A DNA stretch of 18,219 bases, taken from the NCBI GenBank assembly GCA_040755315.1, contig JBFMBF010000024.1:1-18219 (forward strand), written 5' to 3'. The DNA is from Candidatus Hadarchaeota archaeon. GTDB taxonomy: Archaea > Hadarchaeota > Hadarchaeia > Hadarchaeales > Hadarchaeaceae. Made by a program: the position numbers and the translations under genes. How positions within the stretch are numbered: the first letter of the stretch is position 1; each line of letters begins with the position of its first letter. The notes below the pieces were generated by a model. The model saw nothing but the letters and a program-made list of their open reading frames with translations, made no database searches and was not told the DNA's origin. Shown piece by piece: positions 5,689 to 18,219 of this stretch.

Positions 5689-6750
5689 TCACCTCACCAG
5701 CAGCCTCTTGTATTTTGCATATGTCGAGTAGTCGATGTAAACCTTGTTGTTGATGTAGTCGGCGGTTTTCGGCGCAAGGTCCCGCCTGTCCACGATGGCA
5801 TCTTTGACCGTTATGCTGAAGGCGTCGCTCCCCGCCCCCGAGCCATATGACACCACGAGAATCCTGTCTCCGGCTTTCGCTTCGTCCAGGACAGCTGCCA
5901 GCCCCATCATGGATGCCGCGGAGTAGGTGTTCCCTATCTTTGGCGTCAGGAGCCCCGTCGTCACCTGCTCCTTGGAGAAACCCAGCTCCTCGGCCGCCTG
6001 TAGTGGGAACTTCCCGTTCGGCTGGTGGAAGACGGCGTAGGTGAAATCTTGGGGGGTGAGCTTGAGCCTCCTGAGCAGGCCGTGGGCCGCCGACAGGACA
6101 TGCTTGAAATAGGCCGGCTTCCCTGTGAACCTCCCGCCGTGCTTCGGATAGGGCCTCATCTCTCGCCTCCAGAAGTCGGGGGTGTCTGTGGTGTATGAGA
6201 ATGTCCCGTCTATTGAGGCGATTGCTTCCACCCCGTTGCTACCGACGAGGAAGGCAGCCCCCCCGGCGGCGGCAGTGTACTCCAGGGCATCGCCCGGGGC
6301 GCCCTGTGAAGTGTCCGTGCCTATCCCCATCCCATAGTTGATTATTTTGGCGCCGACCGAACCCATGCAGGCCTGGAGTCCCGCCGTCCCGGCCTTGCAG
6401 GCGAACTCGTAGTCTGCGGCGGTCAGGTTGGGTGTCGCCTCTATGGCCTCTGCGACGATTGTGGCCGTCGGCTTCACGGCGTACGGGTGGGATTCAGATC
6501 CAACGTAGATTGCGCCTATATCGGCAGGGTTTATCCCGGCCCTCTTCAAGGCGTTCCTCGCGGCTTCCACAGCTATTGTCGCCGAGTCCTCGTCGGGGCC
6601 CGGGACAGATTTCTCGGTAACAAGGAGGCCGTGCTTTATCCTCTGGGGGTCCTCGCCCCAGACCTTCGCGATTTCTTCCACTTTTATCCTGTATTTAGGG
6701 ATGTAGACTCCGTACCCGATTATACCTACTTCTGGCGGCAAAAAATCCAA
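5689..6750 (-). CDS. mvaS: Hydroxymethylglutaryl-CoA synthase (archaeal type)
   Basis: [19 protein letters not shown] (catalytic Cys), [38 protein letters not shown] start at 6750 or 6741 (GAGGT is better spaced for 6741). Confidence 0.96.
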
Positions 6751-6782
6751 CCTCTGATTTTTGTCTTAATGCTCTGGAACGG

Positions 6783-6797
6783 CTTAAATACCTTTCG
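6783..6797 (-). promoter_or_regulatory. BRE/TATA-like promoter for the HMGCS-thiolase-DUF35 operon
   Basis: Minus strand reads CGAAAGG TATTTAAG about 33 nt upstream of the HMGCS start. Confidence 0.55.
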
Positions 6798-6829
6798 AGT
6801 GTCGGATAAAGAATCGTCGAACGCCGTAA

Positions 6830-7540
6830 TCAAGGGGAGCATTTTCTCAGGTTTGATATCAGGTCGACCACCGTGGGCAGGCGGGAGATCACGAGGGGCA
6901 CCTTGAGGAGCTGGGCGATCTTTATCCCGAGGGGATCCACTTCCTTCAGGTCGCCGTGGAGGACGACCATCCCCGGGGTTATCCCTATCACCCTGATGGC
7001 CACCATTGGGGAGCGGCCGGCCGTCACCCCGGTGAACGCCAGGACCCTCTCGGTCGTCATGCCGTAGATGCGCCTGAAGTCCTCGGGGGACATGCTGATG
7101 ATGGCCTTGTAGCTGTCGATAGCGGTATAGCCGAAAAGCTTCTGCTCCATGAACTCCTTCCCGGAGACGACCTCGCCGTTCACGGCCTTGGCGACGGCCT
7201 TGCCATCGACCGGCTGGCGGTATTCCCTTATCTCCAGCACGACATCCGGCGGGAGCTGGGTGCCGAAGGCGTGGGAGAACGTCCGGCTGACCTCGCCTCC
7301 CCTTTCCTCGTCCAGCTTGAGCAGGGCTTCTGTGATGCGCTTGATGGTGGTTGCCCCGGGGGACTTCCTTCTGCTGGCCTCGTAGTCGCTGACCACGGAG
7401 GGGGAGACCCTGATGGCCTTTGCAAGCTCCGTCTGGTTGACGTCGAACCTTTCCCGCCACCTCTTTATGGTCTCTCCCGGGTTGCCTGAGAGGGCGATGT
7501 CGCCGGCAATCCACTTCATTATCCTTTCTTTTTCTTCCAT
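6830..7540 (-). CDS. Archaeal XRE-type HTH transcriptional regulator (COG1709-like)
   Basis: IAGDIALSGNPGETIKRWRE...QTELA...SPSVVSDYE..RRKSPG HTH, plus GYT.IDS, IYG.TTER and GRSPMVAIRV, typical of this archaeal family. Confidence 0.85.
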   Translation of the reverse strand: MEEKERIMKWIAGDIALSGNPGETIKRWRERFDVNQTELAKAIRVSPSVVSDYEASRRKSPGATTIKRITEALLKLDEERGGEVSRTFSHAFGTQLPPDVVLEIREYRQPVDGKAVAKAVNGEVVSGKEFMEQKLFGYTAIDSYKAIISMSPEDFRRIYGMTTERVLAFTGVTAGRSPMVAIRVIGITPGMVVLHGDLKEVDPLGIKIAQLLKVPLVISRLPTVVDLISNLRKCSP

Positions 7541-12581: not shown

Positions 12582-14209
12582 TTACAGCAAGTTATCGCGA
12601 TCTCTGCAGGCTGCTCGGAAGGAAGATCGAGGTCGAGAAGCTTTGCGAGAGGCTTTCAATGGTGGGGATGGAGACAGAGGCCGAGGGATATTCTCTGAAG
12701 ATGGAGGTGTTCCACAACAGGCCCGACCTGCTCAGCCCAGAGGGGGTCGCGCGCGCCTTGAAGGGGTTCCTCGGGATTGAAACAGGGTTGCCGCGCTACA
12801 GACTCTCCGGGCCTCGCGTGGTCGTCGACGTGGATGCGAGCGTGGCCCAGGTGAGGCCGTTCATAGCGGCTGGAGTGGTCAGGGACGTCCAACTGACGGA
12901 CGACATCGTGGCGTCGCTGATGCAGATTCAGGAGAAGCTGCACGCCTCACTCTGCAGGAACAGGAGGAGGGCGTCCATTGGGGTCTACGACATGGACAAG
13001 GTCGCGCCACCGATAAAGTACACGACGGTAGCCCCTGACGGGATAAAGTTCACGCCGCTTGATTTCGGTCACGAGTGCACCCCAGCCCAGATCCTGATGG
13101 AGCACCCGAAGGGGCTGGAGTACTCCTGGCTCCTGAAAGACATGCCGCGCTACCCGCTTCTTGTGGACTCGAAAGGCGTCGTGCTCTCGATGCCGCCGAT
13201 AATCAACAGCGAGGACACCAGGGTCACGAGCGGGACCAAGAACCTCTTCATCGATGTCACGGGGCTTGACGAGAGGGCGGTGGAGCAGCCGCTGGCGATA
13301 TTGATGACCGCTTTGGCGGAGAGGGGGTTCAAGATTGAGCAAGTGGCTGTAAGGCGCAGAAAGGCCATCACAAAAACCCCAGACTTGAACCCTCGAAAGC
13401 ACAAGCTCAGCATCAGGCAAGCGAACCGGACGATAGGGCTCAACCTCGCGTCGAAGGAGATTGCGAGGGTGGCCAAGCGCATGCGTTATGGAGTTGGAGG
13501 AGCCAAGGGCGATTCCGTTACTCTCCTCGCGCCGCCGTACAGGACTGACATCATGCACGAGATTGACTTGATTGAGGACATCGCGGTGGGTTACGGCTAC
13601 GACAGACTTGAGCCGACATACCCAAAGGTCCTGACGATAGGGGAGAAGGCGGAGGTTGAGAAGACAAGCAGCGAGGCGAGGCAGGTTCTCACTGGACTCG
13701 GGTTCACGGAGGTCATGAATTACATCTTGACCAACCCCCGCAGCGAGATGGAGCTCATGAAGGTCAAGGAGGAGGTGGCGGAGATAGCCAACCCCGTTTC
13801 GGAGGAGTACACGATTTTGCGCGCCTCGCTGATTCCATCCCTGCTTGGCAGCCTGCATCAGAACAGGCGCAACCCTCTCCCGCAGAGAATTTTCGAGGTC
13901 GGCGACGTGGTTGTACTTGACCCATCTGCTGAAACAGGTGCCGCAAACGTCAGGCGTGCGGCAGGCGCAATAATCGGTGGGGGGGCGGGCTTCACAGAGA
14001 TCAAGGGAATTGCAGAGGCTCTTCTCAGGGAACTTGGCGTGAAATGTGATGTCAAGGCGGCATGGAGCGCGAGCTTCCTAGACGGCCGGGCGGTTGAGTT
14101 TTATTCCGAAGGCAAAAAAATCGGCGTTGCCGGGGAAATTCATCCAGAGGTTCTTGTCGAGTTCGAGCTTGAGCACCCGGCCGCGGTTTTTGAGGTGGAT
14201 CTGGAGTAA
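12572..14209 (+). CDS. pheT: Phenylalanine--tRNA ligase beta subunit (archaeal type)
   Basis: MPII..., NRPDLLS.EG.AR, QEKLH...RNRR..SIG.YD, LSMPPIINS, RTDIMHEIDLIEDIAVGYGY, NPVSEEY..LR.SL.P, FEVGDVV, GEIHPEVL..FEL. Overlaps pheS by 10 nt. Confidence 0.97.
   Translation: MPIITASYRDLCRLLGRKIEVEKLCERLSMVGMETEAEGYSLKMEVFHNRPDLLSPEGVARALKGFLGIETGLPRYRLSGPRVVVDVDASVAQVRPFIAAGVVRDVQLTDDIVASLMQIQEKLHASLCRNRRRASIGVYDMDKVAPPIKYTTVAPDGIKFTPLDFGHECTPAQILMEHPKGLEYSWLLKDMPRYPLLVDSKGVVLSMPPIINSEDTRVTSGTKNLFIDVTGLDERAVEQPLAILMTALAERGFKIEQVAVRRRKAITKTPDLNPRKHKLSIRQANRTIGLNLASKEIARVAKRMRYGVGGAKGDSVTLLAPPYRTDIMHEIDLIEDIAVGYGYDRLEPTYPKVLTIGEKAEVEKTSSEARQVLTGLGFTEVMNYILTNPRSEMELMKVKEEVAEIANPVSEEYTILRASLIPSLLGSLHQNRRNPLPQRIFEVGDVVVLDPSAETGAANVRRAAGAIIGGGAGFTEIKGIAEALLRELGVKCDVKAAWSASFLDGRAVEFYSEGKKIGVAGEIHPEVLVEFELEHPAAVFEVDLE
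14132..14209 (+). repeat. pheT 3'-end repeat, copy 1 (the functional gene end)
   Basis: Encodes GEIHPEVLVEFELEHPAAVFEVDLE*. 14163-14196 is identical to 16577-16610. Confidence 0.95.
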
Positions 14210-14225
14210 AAAAAGCCCGTTTTTT
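14208..14225 (+). terminator. Putative oligo-T terminator after pheT
   Basis: An A-run, GCCCG, then TTTTTT immediately after the stop; oligo-T is present on both strands. Confidence 0.4.
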
Positions 14226-14272
14226 GTCAATTGCCAATGCTAATGACAAACTTTAAATAAAAGCTTGTCAAT
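14223..14272 (+). promoter_or_regulatory. TATA box flanked by TTGTCA/TGACAA half-sites upstream of the ATPase
   Basis: TTTGTCA 14223-14229, TGACAAA 14244-14250, TTTAAATA 14252-14259, TTGTCAAT 14265-14272. Confidence 0.55.
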
Positions 14273-14287
14273 AAAAAACTGATACTT

Positions 14288-15592
14288 GTGAACGTTGAGG
14301 ACATAAAAAGGGTCGTGCTGGACCAAAGGGAAGAGCTTGAGGAGATTTTCCGGAGGGAAAAGATAGTCGACAGGACCGTGCCAACGGAAAAACTGCTGAA
14401 GGCTCTGGCACATCCAAACATCCTTGCTATCTTGGGCGTCAGGAGATGCGGCAAGTCCGTATTGTCGCACCTTCTTCTGAAAGGAAAACGGTACGGATAT
14501 GTAAACTTTGACGATGAGAGGCTTGCCAATATGGCAACAGAAGATCTGGACCGAGTTCTGCAGGCATTCTACGAGATTGAAAAGGACTTGGACTACCTCG
14601 TCTTGGACGAAATCCAAGATGTGCCGAAGTGGGAGCTTTTTGCCAACAGGCTGAGGAGGACGAAAAAGGTTGTCATAACGGGGAGCAATGCCAAACTGCT
14701 ATCGGGAGAACTGGCGACGCACCTCACGGGCAGGTACTTGGACTTCATCCTCTACCCGTTCTCGTTCGAGGAGTTCCTGCGCGTGAAGGGGGGCGAGGTC
14801 GGCCGCGATGCCACATACTCTACTAAAAAAACAGCCGAGATAAAGAGCGCCCTCCGTGACTACATGCACACCGGAGGCTTCCCAGAAGCATGCAAGTTTG
14901 GGAAGGGTGCCATAAACAAAGTTTACGAGGACATCATCACAAAAGACATACTGCTCAGGCACGGTGTTAGAAAAGAGAGGGATTTCAAAGATTTGGCGAG
15001 GTACCTGATCTCAAACTTCTCAAAAGAGGTTACTTTTTCGAAGTTGAAAAACCTGTTTGGGATAAGGAACGTCCACACGGCGAAAAATTACGTGGATTAC
15101 CTGGTCACCTCATACTTGGTCTTCACGGTGGAGCGATTCTCTTTCAAGTTGAAGCGGCAGATGATAGCACCGAAGAAGGTTTACTGCGTTGACATCGGAA
15201 TTTTGGACGTGATGGCCTCGCGGTTCTCGGAAGACACAGGCAAATTGATGGAGAACTTGGTTTTTTTGGAGTTGCTGAGGAAGAAATCGTTCATAGAAAA
15301 ACCGCGCGAAATTTTCTACTGGAAGGACCACCAGCAGCGGGAGGTTGACTTTGTAGTTAAAGATGGGATGAATGTGAAACAATTGATTCAGGTGGCATAC
15401 GCTTCCGGCAGGGACGAGATAGAAAAAAGGGAAATGGACGCCCTTGTGAAAGCCAGCGATGAACTGAGGTGTAATGGCTTGTTGGTGGTAACTTGGGATT
15501 ACGGCGGAGAATTGAAGCTCAAAAACAAAAAAATAACATGCATGCCATTGTGGAAATGGTTGCTGGGGGATGGGTGGGGAGGTCCATCCTGA
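14288..15592 (+). CDS. AAA+ ATPase with C-terminal DUF4143 / PD-(D/E)xK-like domain (COG1373-like)
   Basis: Walker A GVRRCGKS, YVNFDDERL, Walker B LDEIQ, ITGSN..LL..E.AT.LTGR, PFSF.EF, GGFPE, KKVY.VD.G, MENLV, FYWKD....EVDFV, PLWKWL. Confidence 0.92.
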   Translation: MNVEDIKRVVLDQREELEEIFRREKIVDRTVPTEKLLKALAHPNILAILGVRRCGKSVLSHLLLKGKRYGYVNFDDERLANMATEDLDRVLQAFYEIEKDLDYLVLDEIQDVPKWELFANRLRRTKKVVITGSNAKLLSGELATHLTGRYLDFILYPFSFEEFLRVKGGEVGRDATYSTKKTAEIKSALRDYMHTGGFPEACKFGKGAINKVYEDIITKDILLRHGVRKERDFKDLARYLISNFSKEVTFSKLKNLFGIRNVHTAKNYVDYLVTSYLVFTVERFSFKLKRQMIAPKKVYCVDIGILDVMASRFSEDTGKLMENLVFLELLRKKSFIEKPREIFYWKDHQQREVDFVVKDGMNVKQLIQVAYASGRDEIEKREMDALVKASDELRCNGLLVVTWDYGGELKLKNKKITCMPLWKWLLGDGWGGPS

Positions 15593-15647
15593 GGTGCTCG
15601 TCGGGTTCGAGCTTGAGCACTTGGCCGCTGTTTTCGAGCTACCTTGA
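15576..15647 (+). repeat. pheT 3'-end repeat, copy 2 (diverged)
   Basis: Translates as GEVHPEVLVGFELEHLAAVFELP*. 52/63 nt identical to 14132-14194; six of the nine changed codons are synonymous. Confidence 0.93.
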
Positions 15648-15735
15648 TGGGGAGAAGATGGAGCTGGTGCAGTTCGGGCCGGACGCTGGGTTCGGGGAGT
15701 GGAACTCGCTGGGGTTCGGGTTTATGAACAGGGTC
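15640..15735 (+). pseudogene. cas6: cas6 3'-terminal remnant
   Basis: Translates as YLDGEKMELVQFGPDAGFGEWNSLGFGFMNRV, containing the Cas6 glycine-rich loop GhGxxxxxGhG (15688-15720). The rest of the gene is absent. Confidence 0.75.
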
Positions 15736-15803
15736 GGGAGGGCCTGGGCAGAGTATGTTCCGAAAGTTTATTTTAGTTCATGCCGAATATAGGCCGTGGA
15801 AAG

Positions 15804-16001
15804 ATGGCAGCACGAAATTCTGATGTCGGGCGAAAGGCGCTCGAGGAGTTCAGGAAAAAGGTGAGGGAGGTCAGGGCGGCGGAGTGGAGGCGGGACGCTC
15901 GCCTTCTCAGAGACAGGACTCCAGAGGAAACCATAAGTGCGATGTTTGACTTGGTGAACTTTGCTGAAAACTTAAGCAGGGCGAAAAAATGCGAACCCTA
16001 G
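15804..16001 (+). CDS. Small charged helical protein, probable antitoxin partner of the downstream nucleotidyltransferase
   Basis: About 65 aa from ATG 15804, with LLRDRTPEETISAMFDL. TTTATTTT TATA-like run at about 15767. Overlaps the next gene by 13 nt. Confidence 0.6.
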   Translation: MAARNSDVGRKALEEFRKKVREVRAAEWRRDARLLRDRTPEETISAMFDLVNFAENLSRAKKCEP

Positions 16002-16567
16002 AGGACGTTACAAAAGAAGTCGCTAAAATCTTGGGGGCGCTTGGCATAGAATATGCCATTGTCGGGGGGGTGGCAGTTGCCGGTTGGGGGAACCTCAGGA
16101 CAACGAGGGACGTTGATGTCGTCATAGACCTCCAAAGCGACAGGGTGAAGGAGTTCGTCCGCGCTTTCAAGAAAAGGGGATTTTCCATTGGCGAGCAAGA
16201 TGTTTTGGATGCATTGAAAGAAAAGGGCCACTTCACGATTTTTGATAATCGCTCGGTGTACCACGTCGATGCCAAGGGTGCATACGGGGGAAGGGAGCTT
16301 AAAACAATCGAGACGAGGAAAAAGACGAGGATAAAGGGGTCCGATGCGTACATCGCGTCCGCCGAGGACACCATCGCAAACAAGCTGGTGTTTGGCAGCG
16401 AGCAGGACCTGAGGGACGCGGAGGGGATCTTCATAAGGCAGGCGGGGAGGCTTGATTTGAAGTACTTGGAGAGGATTTGTAAGGCGATGGGCGTGGGGAA
16501 GGAACTTGCGGGGCTGAAAAGGGCGGCCAGGGGGGCATCAGGAAGTCGGGGTCGTCGGCGCTTCTGA
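15989..16567 (+). CDS. Pol-beta superfamily nucleotidyltransferase (DUF6036/AbiEii/MenT-like), putative toxin
   Basis: YAIVGGVAV...G..RTTRDVDVV (GG...R.T.DhD) and C-terminal EDTIANKL...SEQDLRDA motifs. Confidence 0.8.
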   Translation: MRTLEDVTKEVAKILGALGIEYAIVGGVAVAGWGNLRTTRDVDVVIDLQSDRVKEFVRAFKKRGFSIGEQDVLDALKEKGHFTIFDNRSVYHVDAKGAYGGRELKTIETRKKTRIKGSDAYIASAEDTIANKLVFGSEQDLRDAEGIFIRQAGRLDLKYLERICKAMGVGKELAGLKRAARGASGSRGRRRF

Positions 16568-16623
16568 GGTTCTGGCTCGAGCTTGAGCACCCGGCCGCGG
16601 TTTTTGAGGTTGGGCTGGGGTAA
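16542..16623 (+). repeat. pheT 3'-end repeat, copy 3
   Basis: 34-nt perfect match (16577-16610) to 14163-14196, ending ELEHPAAVFEVGLG*. The upstream part reads EVGVVG..SEVL (cf. KIGVAGEIHPEVL) with small deletions. Confidence 0.95.
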
Positions 16624-16664
16624 AGAATTAAACACTTAGAATAAGATTATATTGGGGGCAGCAC

Positions 16665-17657
16665 ATGGGCATGAATCTAATCGTGGATGATTGGAAGACT
16701 TTCATCGGCAAAAAGGAAAACCGTTTCGAACTGCTTCAGGGCGAAAAAAAGACGGAATTCTCTGCGGACGATGTAAACCAGATAATTGTTGTGGCGGCAT
16801 CATCTATATCAGTTGGCGCTGTAAGGTTGGCGCTGGAAAAAGGGATAGACATAGTTTTCATCAACCGTTTTGGTGCGCCAACTGGCCGGATATATCCGTG
16901 CAAGCTTGGCGGTACCACATTTACCCGCAAAAGGCAACTTGAAGCCTATTTTTCTGGAAAAGGGTTGGAGCTGGCGAAGAATTTTATCAGCGGGAAGGTA
17001 AAAAACCAAGCGACCGTTTTGAAAGCTTTGCAGAAGACAAGAGCAAATGTCGATTTTGCTGAACAAATAGAAAAAATGAACGCGGGCTTGTCTCAGATTG
17101 GCGAGATTAATGGCGGTTTGGACGATGTTCGCGAAAAGCTGCTTGGGATAGAGGGCAATGCGGCGAGCGAATATTTCCAAGCGCTGTCTGAAATTCTGCC
17201 TTTTGAAAAGCGCGACAGAAAAAGCGGGGACATATTCAATACCATGCTCAACTATGCGTATGGAATTCTTTACTCCGAGGTCGAGAAAGCGTGCATTCTG
17301 GCAGGGCTAGACCCATATCTCGGCTATCTCCACACTGACCGTTATGGAAAACCATCTATGGTATTGGATTTGATTGAGGAGTTCCGTGCACCAATCGCCG
17401 ATAAGGCCGTTATAACTCTGATTGCCCGAAAGCAGGTTGAAGACAAGGATATTGAGAAAAATGGTGAAACGGTTCTTTTGAGCGAAAGCGGGCGAAAGAA
17501 AGTCATCGAAGCGGTTATGGCACGGCTTCACGGAACAGAAGAGCAGACAAACGCCGAGAAGAGACTAAAAAACGCCATAGTTGAACAGGCTCGTGCAGTG
17601 GCCAGATTTGTTCTTGGTTCGGCTGAGCGCTATCAACCATATGGGCTGGTCGGATAA
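16665..17657 (+). CDS. cas1: CRISPR-associated endonuclease Cas1
   Basis: LLGIEGNAA.EYF, FNTMLNYAYGILY, GLDPYLGYLH, SMVLDLIEEFR..IAD; catalytic E/H/E-D positions present. Confidence 0.97.
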   Translation: MGMNLIVDDWKTFIGKKENRFELLQGEKKTEFSADDVNQIIVVAASSISVGAVRLALEKGIDIVFINRFGAPTGRIYPCKLGGTTFTRKRQLEAYFSGKGLELAKNFISGKVKNQATVLKALQKTRANVDFAEQIEKMNAGLSQIGEINGGLDDVREKLLGIEGNAASEYFQALSEILPFEKRDRKSGDIFNTMLNYAYGILYSEVEKACILAGLDPYLGYLHTDRYGKPSMVLDLIEEFRAPIADKAVITLIARKQVEDKDIEKNGETVLLSESGRKKVIEAVMARLHGTEEQTNAEKRLKNAIVEQARAVARFVLGSAERYQPYGLVG

Positions 17658-17658
17658 C

Positions 17659-17958
17659 ATGCTGTGGTGGGTTATCTACGATATTTCTGAAAATAAAGTC
17701 AGGTCGTGTGCATCATCCAAGTGTAAAAATTACGGGTTAGTCAGAGTCCAAAAAAGTGCGTTTCTGGGGGAGCTTAGTAAAAACCGCGCGGAGATGTTAT
17801 CATTGGAACTAAAAGATGTCATAAAAGAAGGCGACTGTATTTTTCTTATCCCGACATGCACGAATTGTTTTCAAGATAAGATAATCCACGGTAGTTTCGA
17901 TGATGCTGTTGCTAAGAAAAAAGACTGGTATATCATCGGTGGGAATGATGAAGTATGA
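17659..17958 (+). CDS. cas2: CRISPR-associated protein Cas2
   Basis: MLWWVIYDIS...R....KCKNYGLVRVQKSAFLG, 99 aa; starts 1 nt after the cas1 stop. Confidence 0.95.
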   Translation: MLWWVIYDISENKVRSCASSKCKNYGLVRVQKSAFLGELSKNRAEMLSLELKDVIKEGDCIFLIPTCTNCFQDKIIHGSFDDAVAKKKDWYIIGGNDEV

Positions 17959-18219
17959 TGGGCTGGTTTCGGCAACTGATGTGATGAAATACTTGTATTG
18001 TCCGAGAATCATTTACTTCATTTATGTTTTACAATCCCCTCAGCTAGTGACTGCAAAAGAGAATAAAGGTTTGGAAAAATATCAAGAATTCAAAACCAAA
18101 TCAAAAAGAAATAAAATAGTAAAAGAGTTTCCCAAAATGAAAAAAGTTTATGATGTTTCCCTGTTATCGAACAAATTTGGTGCTATTACCAAAACAGATT
18201 GTATTCTGATAAACGAAGA
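17945..18219 (+). CDS. cas4: CRISPR-associated exonuclease Cas4 (5' part; truncated by the window edge)
   Basis: Not in the ORF track. Hand translation gives MMKYDGLVSATDVMKYLYCPRIIYF...SLLSNKFGAITKTDCILINE, open to the window end. YCPR Fe-S motif; overlaps cas2. Confidence 0.9.
   Translation, partial: MMKYDGLVSATDVMKYLYCPRIIYFIYVLQSPQLVTAKENKGLEKYQEFKTKSKRNKIVKEFPKMKKVYDVSLLSNKFGAITKTDCILINE

Follow-up and report, generated by a model that had tools for sequence, protein, structure and literature searches.

Layout of the locus

The window, by which we mean the whole 18,219-nucleotide (nt) stretch analyzed here, belongs to genome G000. It carries an intact pheT, two insert blocks of 1.4 and 1.0 kb without an integrase gene, and then cas1, cas2, and the start of cas4 (Table 1). 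The 3′ end of pheT recurs twice downstream, as scar 2 and scar 3, and directly behind scar 2 one frame reads FSSYLDGEKMELVQFGPDAGFGEWNSLGFGFMN. Below, G002 denotes a genome of the same genus and L036 its locus.

Table 1. Features of the pheT-cas region, in window coordinates.
Feature	Position	Strand	Basis or remark
3′ end of intact pheT, duplicated twice downstream	14132..14209	+	Pfam PheT domains; repeat family D1
AAA_14 + DUF4143 ATPase (PADLOC PDC-S01), cargo between pheT and scar 2	14288..15592	+	Family matches
pheT scar 2, a diverged repeat of the gene's end (63 nt, 83% identity)	15576..15638	+	Cut 5 codons before the stop
Junction, imperfect microhomology between pheT end and cas6 "FSF" codons	15630..15638	+	7 nt common to the G002 cas6
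Pseudogenic cas6 3′ tail, last ~36 codons	15637..15747	+	Pfam, TIGR01877, PADLOC, DNA profile, relatives
G-rich loop codons, GFGEWNSLGFG	15688..15720	+	W codon at 15700-15702; L/E in intact clade genes
AT-rich leader, putative archaeal promoter plus start of the next gene	15762..15807	+	45 of 46 nt match L080
73-aa open reading frame, putative antitoxin	15780..16001	+	No family match; the cas6 array of L073/L079 has a copy with 68% identity
DUF6036 nucleotidyltransferase, putative toxin partner	15989..16567	+	73% identical copy in L073/L079
pheT scar 3, displaced pheT end with stop	16564..16623	+	Followed by cas1 here, by intact cas6-cas8b in G002
cas1, cas2, start of cas4	16665..18219	+	Contig ends inside cas4

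The tail behind scar 2 is a decayed cas6 3′ end

A sequence-only reading had placed the end of an unannotated cas6 gene at this frame, and the frame is indeed present there. The profile searches bore the identification out, with Cas6 matches in Pfam, TIGR01877, and PADLOC. The tail peptide matched Pfam Cas_Cas6_C (PF01881) at profile positions 100-124 of 125 with E 1.5e-4 and 23 bits, which equals the gathering score. It matched TIGR01877 with E 2.3e-4, under that model's whole-protein cut-off, and nine PADLOC Cas6 models, the best with E 5.3e-6. We also built a DNA profile solely from the 3′ ends of 14 intact cas6 genes, which come from a mostly hadarchaeotal clade, and searched the 1.21-Mb G000 genome with it. 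The tail was found with E 6.4e-23, and the runner-up had E 3.2. The tail is 66-87% identical to these 14 ends. A homologue search with the protein of the tail frame, a query too short to be informative, gave 10 candidates and none at E<=10. About 36 of the approximately 260 cas6 codons are retained, a full-length open frame with two RRMs being absent from the window tail. The C-terminal loop GhGxxxxxGhG, common to the Cas6 family (PF01881, TIGR01877), is present as GFGEWNSLGFG. The tail is thus a genuine decayed cas6 3′ end. As other identities, a simple GTTCGGG repeat and an unrelated Gly-rich protein were ruled out by the DNA and profile matches.

The same relic is found in G002, with 90% identity over 299 nt (88% for the pheT genes of the two genomes). 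Between the two copies, 10 codons differ non-synonymously and none synonymously, and the G002 copy has a frameshift caused by a 1-nt deletion. In pairs of intact genes, 60% of the changed codons are synonymous; the relic is therefore a pseudogene. At 15745-15747, the G002 copy has a stop and the window TGG. Taken alone, the relic is a dead piece of a gene from which no working protein is made. At most, it supplies homology for later cassette exchange.

The tryptophan in the loop had been taken as a decayed R or K, an argument that failed. The published loop consensus, as given in PMC5965381, wants one K/R; this residue is missing in the relic and equally in the intact genes of its clade, where none of the five loop residues is K or R (14/14). 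At the W position, the intact genes have L (8/14, ELNS) or E (6/14, EENS). Seven of the 14 genes came from a Pfam search, which is unbiased for the loop codon, and the other seven from a pattern search in which the codon at the W position was free and the neighboring residues were fixed. Loops of the forms GFGELNSLGFG and GFGEENSLGFG, without K/R, can be seen for example at L036:9050-9862 and L072:5988-6764. Another hadarchaeotal cas6 clade carries K in the loop. Since all 14 intact clade genes also lack it, the missing K/R is no marker of decay here, and the consensus residue, missing across a whole clade of intact genes, is unfit for calling decay.

The base composition had been used as a further argument. 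The tail is indeed richer in GC (0.60) than the adaptation-side genes, along which GC falls steadily (window 16665-18219; cas1 0.47, cas2 0.40, cas4 0.32). This contrast is uninformative, because the G000 genome has 0.54, pheT 0.58, and the intact cas6 ends 0.45-0.63, a range that includes the value of the tail, which is thus ordinary.

The leader and gene pair behind the tail follow cas6 in relatives

The counterpart of the 46-nt leader in L080 starts 12 nt past the stop of an intact cas6. Judged from its sequence, the leader may act as an archaeal promoter; a sigma-70 scan, which does not cover archaeal promoters, found no site. Because the leader and the gene pair behind it follow cas6 in relatives, the tail is still in its native linkage. 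We take the 73-aa frame to be an antitoxin, and together with the DUF6036 gene it forms a putative toxin-antitoxin (TA) pair, as suggested by the layout and by DUF6036 itself.

The array shared by L073 and L079 has the order cas6, putative MNT, HEPN, pair, cas6 tail, AAA, 17-nt mini-tail, and second pair.

At the TA-like pair, the window (15780-16567) and L036:8172-8960 have conserved ends (small frame at the 5′ side, DUF6036 at the 3′ side) and a differing middle. The DUF6036 gene of G002 is an allele only 52% identical to that of the window at the amino acid level. The difference between G000 and G002 is thus an in-place allele swap between conserved flanks.

G002 is without the AAA_14/DUF4143 gene at the corresponding place. 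An AAA gene 85-87% identical to that of the window closes a type I-A cas operon in L072 and L081. The window cargo thus comes from a cas-associated pool. Between cas5 and the AAA gene of L072, a short frame on the minus strand (L072:455-672) resembles, by eye, the start of cas4, which suggests that an AAA cassette replaced adaptation genes at this locus.

pheT ends and their neighborhood in relatives

The junction had been located correctly by the sequence-only reading, with 15638 as the last position of scar 2 and the cas6 frame beginning at approximately 15637. Tested against four cas6 alleles, the junction microhomology gave P = 0.016, 0.051, 0.053, and 0.85, so it is only weakly non-random.

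We then compared the scars with the pheT of their own genome. Scar 2 agrees at 28/32 and 25/32 positions in the two genomes, and scar 3 at 32/32 and 30/32. Scar 3, the outer copy, is the less diverged of the two, which does not suit a simple series with the oldest copy outermost; scar 2 may have come in, already fused, as part of a larger block. At the sole informative base, scar 3 (window 16564-16623; L036:8958-9016) tracks the pheT of its own genome. This agreement hints at gene conversion or ongoing recombination with the pheT end. No duplicate of its own end was found behind pheT in any of the 11 other genomes of the family (11/11), the same-genus G001 included; pheT is therefore a target only in G000 and G002. 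An empty site, with pheT directly followed by cas genes, was not found in any genome compared.

In G002, the order is pheT, scar 2, relic, TA-like pair, scar 3, intact cas6, and cas8b. The linkage of a pheT end to an intact cas6, which the sequence-only reading had suggested looking for in relatives, thus exists at the corresponding site, and an intact cas6 therefore probably once followed the pheT end in the window. The relic is 83.7% identical to the present cas6 of G002 and 87.0% identical to those of L072 and L078. In a 92-column tree, it groups with L072/L078/L080-type alleles and not with the G002 cas6 (UFBoot 85). Since the relic is no closer to the present G002 gene than to L072 and L078, the donor cas6 was a different allele.

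The gene directly upstream of cas6 matched no cas family in any of the 11 loci scanned (eight with a non-cas family, three without a match). A deletion ending in cas6 therefore need remove only cas6, and the lost piece was probably the cas6 body alone. An intact intermediate with pheT, cas6, and TA genes was found neither among the 65 genomes of the order nor in 14 metagenome loci. In the G000 assembly (86.6% complete, with the contig ending in cas4), we found no other cas6, RAMP (PF03787), Cas7 (PF01905), or Cas3 (PF22590) gene, no interference genes, and no CRISPR array. On a single metagenome contig, L082:2748-3949 holds two divergent cas6-like genes in tandem.

cas6 ends recur around TA and ATPase cargo

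Additional cas6 ends lie close to 5/14 intact genes (G002, G006, G008, G038, and L073). This count is a floor, because on five of the 14 contigs the sequence stops no more than about 1 kb from cas6. Free cas6 tails are present in G000, L079, and L083. The left ends of the tails fall at profile positions 20, ~47-57, 51, 70, 121, and 144, a variability that is expected without a site-specific recombinase. Behind seven of the 14 intact clade genes lies cargo of TA or AAA type and not a cas gene (G024 and G042 were assigned by eye). The downstream tail in L073 keeps the spacer and the AAA gene that are found behind the intact cas6 in G008, which matches the prediction that the old gene end is displaced by an insertion.

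Displaced 3′ ends are not confined to pheT and cas6. In G000, three more genes have one behind an insert: a preA-like gene, tyrA, and feoB, the last as a candidate. Empty sites were found for the preA-like gene in G001 and for tyrA in G001, G002, G004, G008, and G016. The displaced end of the preA-like gene (G000:C9:14753-20734, L089) measures 62 nt and lies behind a 4.8-kb insert, with G001 empty. For the feoB candidate (G000 C3:37440-47727, L091), the values are 27 nt and 8.3 kb. At G000:C11:35540-39000 (L090), the duplicated tyrA end flanks a replacement prephenate dehydratase, a PemK/MazF-like gene, and an HNH gene; a remnant of the old pheA start persists behind the displaced tyrA end. 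For another gene, at G008:C1:538278-542750, a displaced 3′ end of 45 nt lies 2.8 kb downstream. Scans for displaced ends gave 5/970 open reading frames in G000 (four without one repeat-rich region), 3/828 in contig 1 of G008 (two without one beside an N run), and 1/941 in the unrelated control archaeon G059 (1.2 of 1.6 Mb). These counts are too few for a lineage-wide excess of displaced gene ends to be claimed.

It is conceivable, though doubtful, that the cas6 3′ end is a shared landing pad in Hadarchaeota and that the relic is such a pad moved to the pheT hotspot. If so, stranded cas6 ends flanking TA and ATPase cassettes would, through homologous recombination, allow these to be cut out, reordered, and exchanged, and an integrase-free cassette array would be built between cas6 and cas8 of a CRISPR operon.

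Origin of the relic

We favor, with moderate confidence, the explanation that the relic is what remains of a small pheT-end/cas6/TA block that entered at the pheT end and from which approximately 0.7 kb of cas6 was later deleted. The locus is likely a scar left by stacked insertions of TA-like blocks, and the loss of an entire CRISPR system need not be assumed. Adjacency of a pheT end and cas6 exists in the genus, since in G002 the relic and TA pair are followed by scar 3 and the intact cas6-cas8b. In the proposed series of events, pheT-cas6-TA DNA from a relative would have entered the cell and circularized. One crossover within the last ~50-60 nt of pheT would have integrated it, and the pheT end would have been displaced, as scar 3, to its position before the resident cas genes. 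The incoming cas6, redundant beside the resident copy, would then have been deleted between the pheT-end microhomology and the FSF codons of cas6. If the block resembled the scar 3-cas6 segment of G002, this deletion would amount to 719 nt and would nearly give the observed junction. A further insertion at the pheT end, before or after this deletion, would have brought the AAA ATPase.

Alternatively, the tail may have been short before it arrived: it would have formed the front edge of a tail-leader-TA cassette that came from a cas6 array and was joined to pheT by microhomology, and the pheT end in the window would never have had an intact cas6 behind it. L083, in which a tail lies before a TA pair and non-cas6 DNA lies upstream, is an example of such a cassette. 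The tail of G006 begins within a few bases of the start of the window tail, which speaks for this alternative and against a chance deletion. The clustering of the relic with L072/L078/L080-type alleles instead of the G002 cas6 is also in line with it. However, the ~45-nt pheT duplication would then require two staggered non-homologous joints, whereas, given the adjacency of pheT end and cas6 in G002, one crossover and one deletion are sufficient. We regard the pre-shortened tail as unlikely.

The sequence-only reading had proposed that a whole earlier CRISPR-Cas module stood behind scar 2 and was deleted except for the end of its last gene, cas6. The cas content of the site has changed, as scar 3 is followed by cas1-2-4 in G000 and by cas6-cas8b in G002, and the near relative of the window AAA gene ends a type I-A operon in L072 and L081. 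Against such a module, cas6 of this clade leads an operon or stands alone, with no cas family match upstream in 11/11 loci; cas8 or cas3 lies downstream of it; the leader and pair known from relatives follow the tail; and the stretch from pheT to cas1 showed no further cas remnant. A lost module is therefore unsupported and quite improbable. The accompanying proposal that CRISPR-Cas occupied the site more than once holds only in a weaker form, namely, as two cas6 alleles and differing cas genes after scar 3.

Slightly less probable still is that a site-specific recombinase, supplied in trans, uses the ends of cas6 and pheT as its attachment sites, as in tandem islands or an integron-like array. 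The layout is like that of the tandem islands described for Islander (PMC4383910), in which the target gene is restored, a displaced 3′ fragment lies downstream, and tandem arrays occur. Moreover, the last ~17-35 nt are kept by all cas6 copies, and integrons with TA cassettes are given for 3-4% of Hadarchaeota genomes in PMC9668308. The islands of PMC4383910, however, have tRNA or tmRNA targets and an integrase of their own in each member, unlike the window blocks. The sole PF00589 match in G000 is an integron integrase on contig C40, the worst compositional outlier of the 50 contigs. The left ends of the cas6 copies vary, though later erosion could produce such variation, and unrelated genes are affected (pheT, cas6, tyrA, the preA-like gene, and feoB). 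A scan with the attC consensus detected no attC-like motif at 14100-16700 and five on C40, which served as a positive check, and no stable DNA hairpin was predicted (z -1.0 to +1.2). An attC/integron reading of the window block was ruled out by the lack of both the motif and a hairpin signal. The integron integrase of C40 (L088:1226-2209; C40 ~6000-6900) matches TIGR02249 with 470 bits and is accompanied by the attC-like motifs; this contig represents either contamination or a genuine integron of an archaeon.

Finally, the tail is very unlikely to have been kept for a structured RNA or a small expressed peptide: although a 44-codon frame in G000 begins with an ATG at 15658 that is preceded by a purine-rich stretch, G002 has CGG at that ATG plus the frameshift, all substituted codons (10/10) are non-synonymous, and no Rfam match was found at E<=1.

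Comparison with known systems

Insertion with long target duplication has been described by Furuta, Abe, and Kobayashi in 2010 (PMC2853133) for bacterial restriction-modification genes; according to the account of the screen in that paper, no archaeal case survived it. As in the insertions characterized there, cargo of less than 20 kb lies between variable direct repeats longer than 30 bp, and no mobility gene is present. Here, the pheT copies (63 and ~51-60 nt) and most cas6 copies (33-145 nt) exceed 30 bp, and two other cas6 copies of only ~17 nt fall short of it. An empty site in a relative also belongs to that description; for the cas6 arrays, such sites are provided by cas6-cas8b of G002 and by G008 in comparison with L073, and they exist for two other G000 genes, whereas none was found for pheT. 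In contrast to the cases in PMC2853133, the host is an archaeon, the cargo consists of TA-like pairs and AAA/DUF4143 ATPases without R and M genes, and the insertions hit the 3′ end of cas6 or pheT and are serial, with repeats 79-93% alike. By analogy, the layout of the window fits the same process with other cargo in an archaeon. The relic is thus of value as a marker, indicating that defense-type cargo accumulates behind cas6 and beside cas operons, without an integrase, in an uncultured archaeal lineage; the stacking of this cargo extends the process described for bacterial restriction systems. Cassette stacking itself is known in kind; what is unusual is only that, in this lineage, the cas6 end serves repeatedly as a target.

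A possible route for such duplications comes from Escherichia coli, in which single crossovers of re-circularized fragments gave target duplications of 109-950 bp, as reported in PMC3240628. The likeness to these events, and to homology-facilitated illegitimate recombination as treated in the same paper, is that a homologous end and a non-homologous joint together give a gene-end duplication of variable length. In PMC3240628, the events were very rare and were observed during conjugation of E. coli, whereas the hadarchaeotal likeness is one of layout.

A search of the literature, with supplements outside its scope, found no report on cas6 tails in Hadarchaeota, nor one on Hadarchaeota, CRISPR, and cas6 together. 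TA modules directly behind cas6 in type I loci have parallels elsewhere. As described in PMC8501985, CreTA lies between cas6 and cas8 in Haloarcula hispanica, and TA pairs adjoin archaeal cas cassettes according to PMC3973734. CreTA is an RNA pair under Cascade control via repeat-like elements, whereas the hadarchaeotal cargo is protein-coding.
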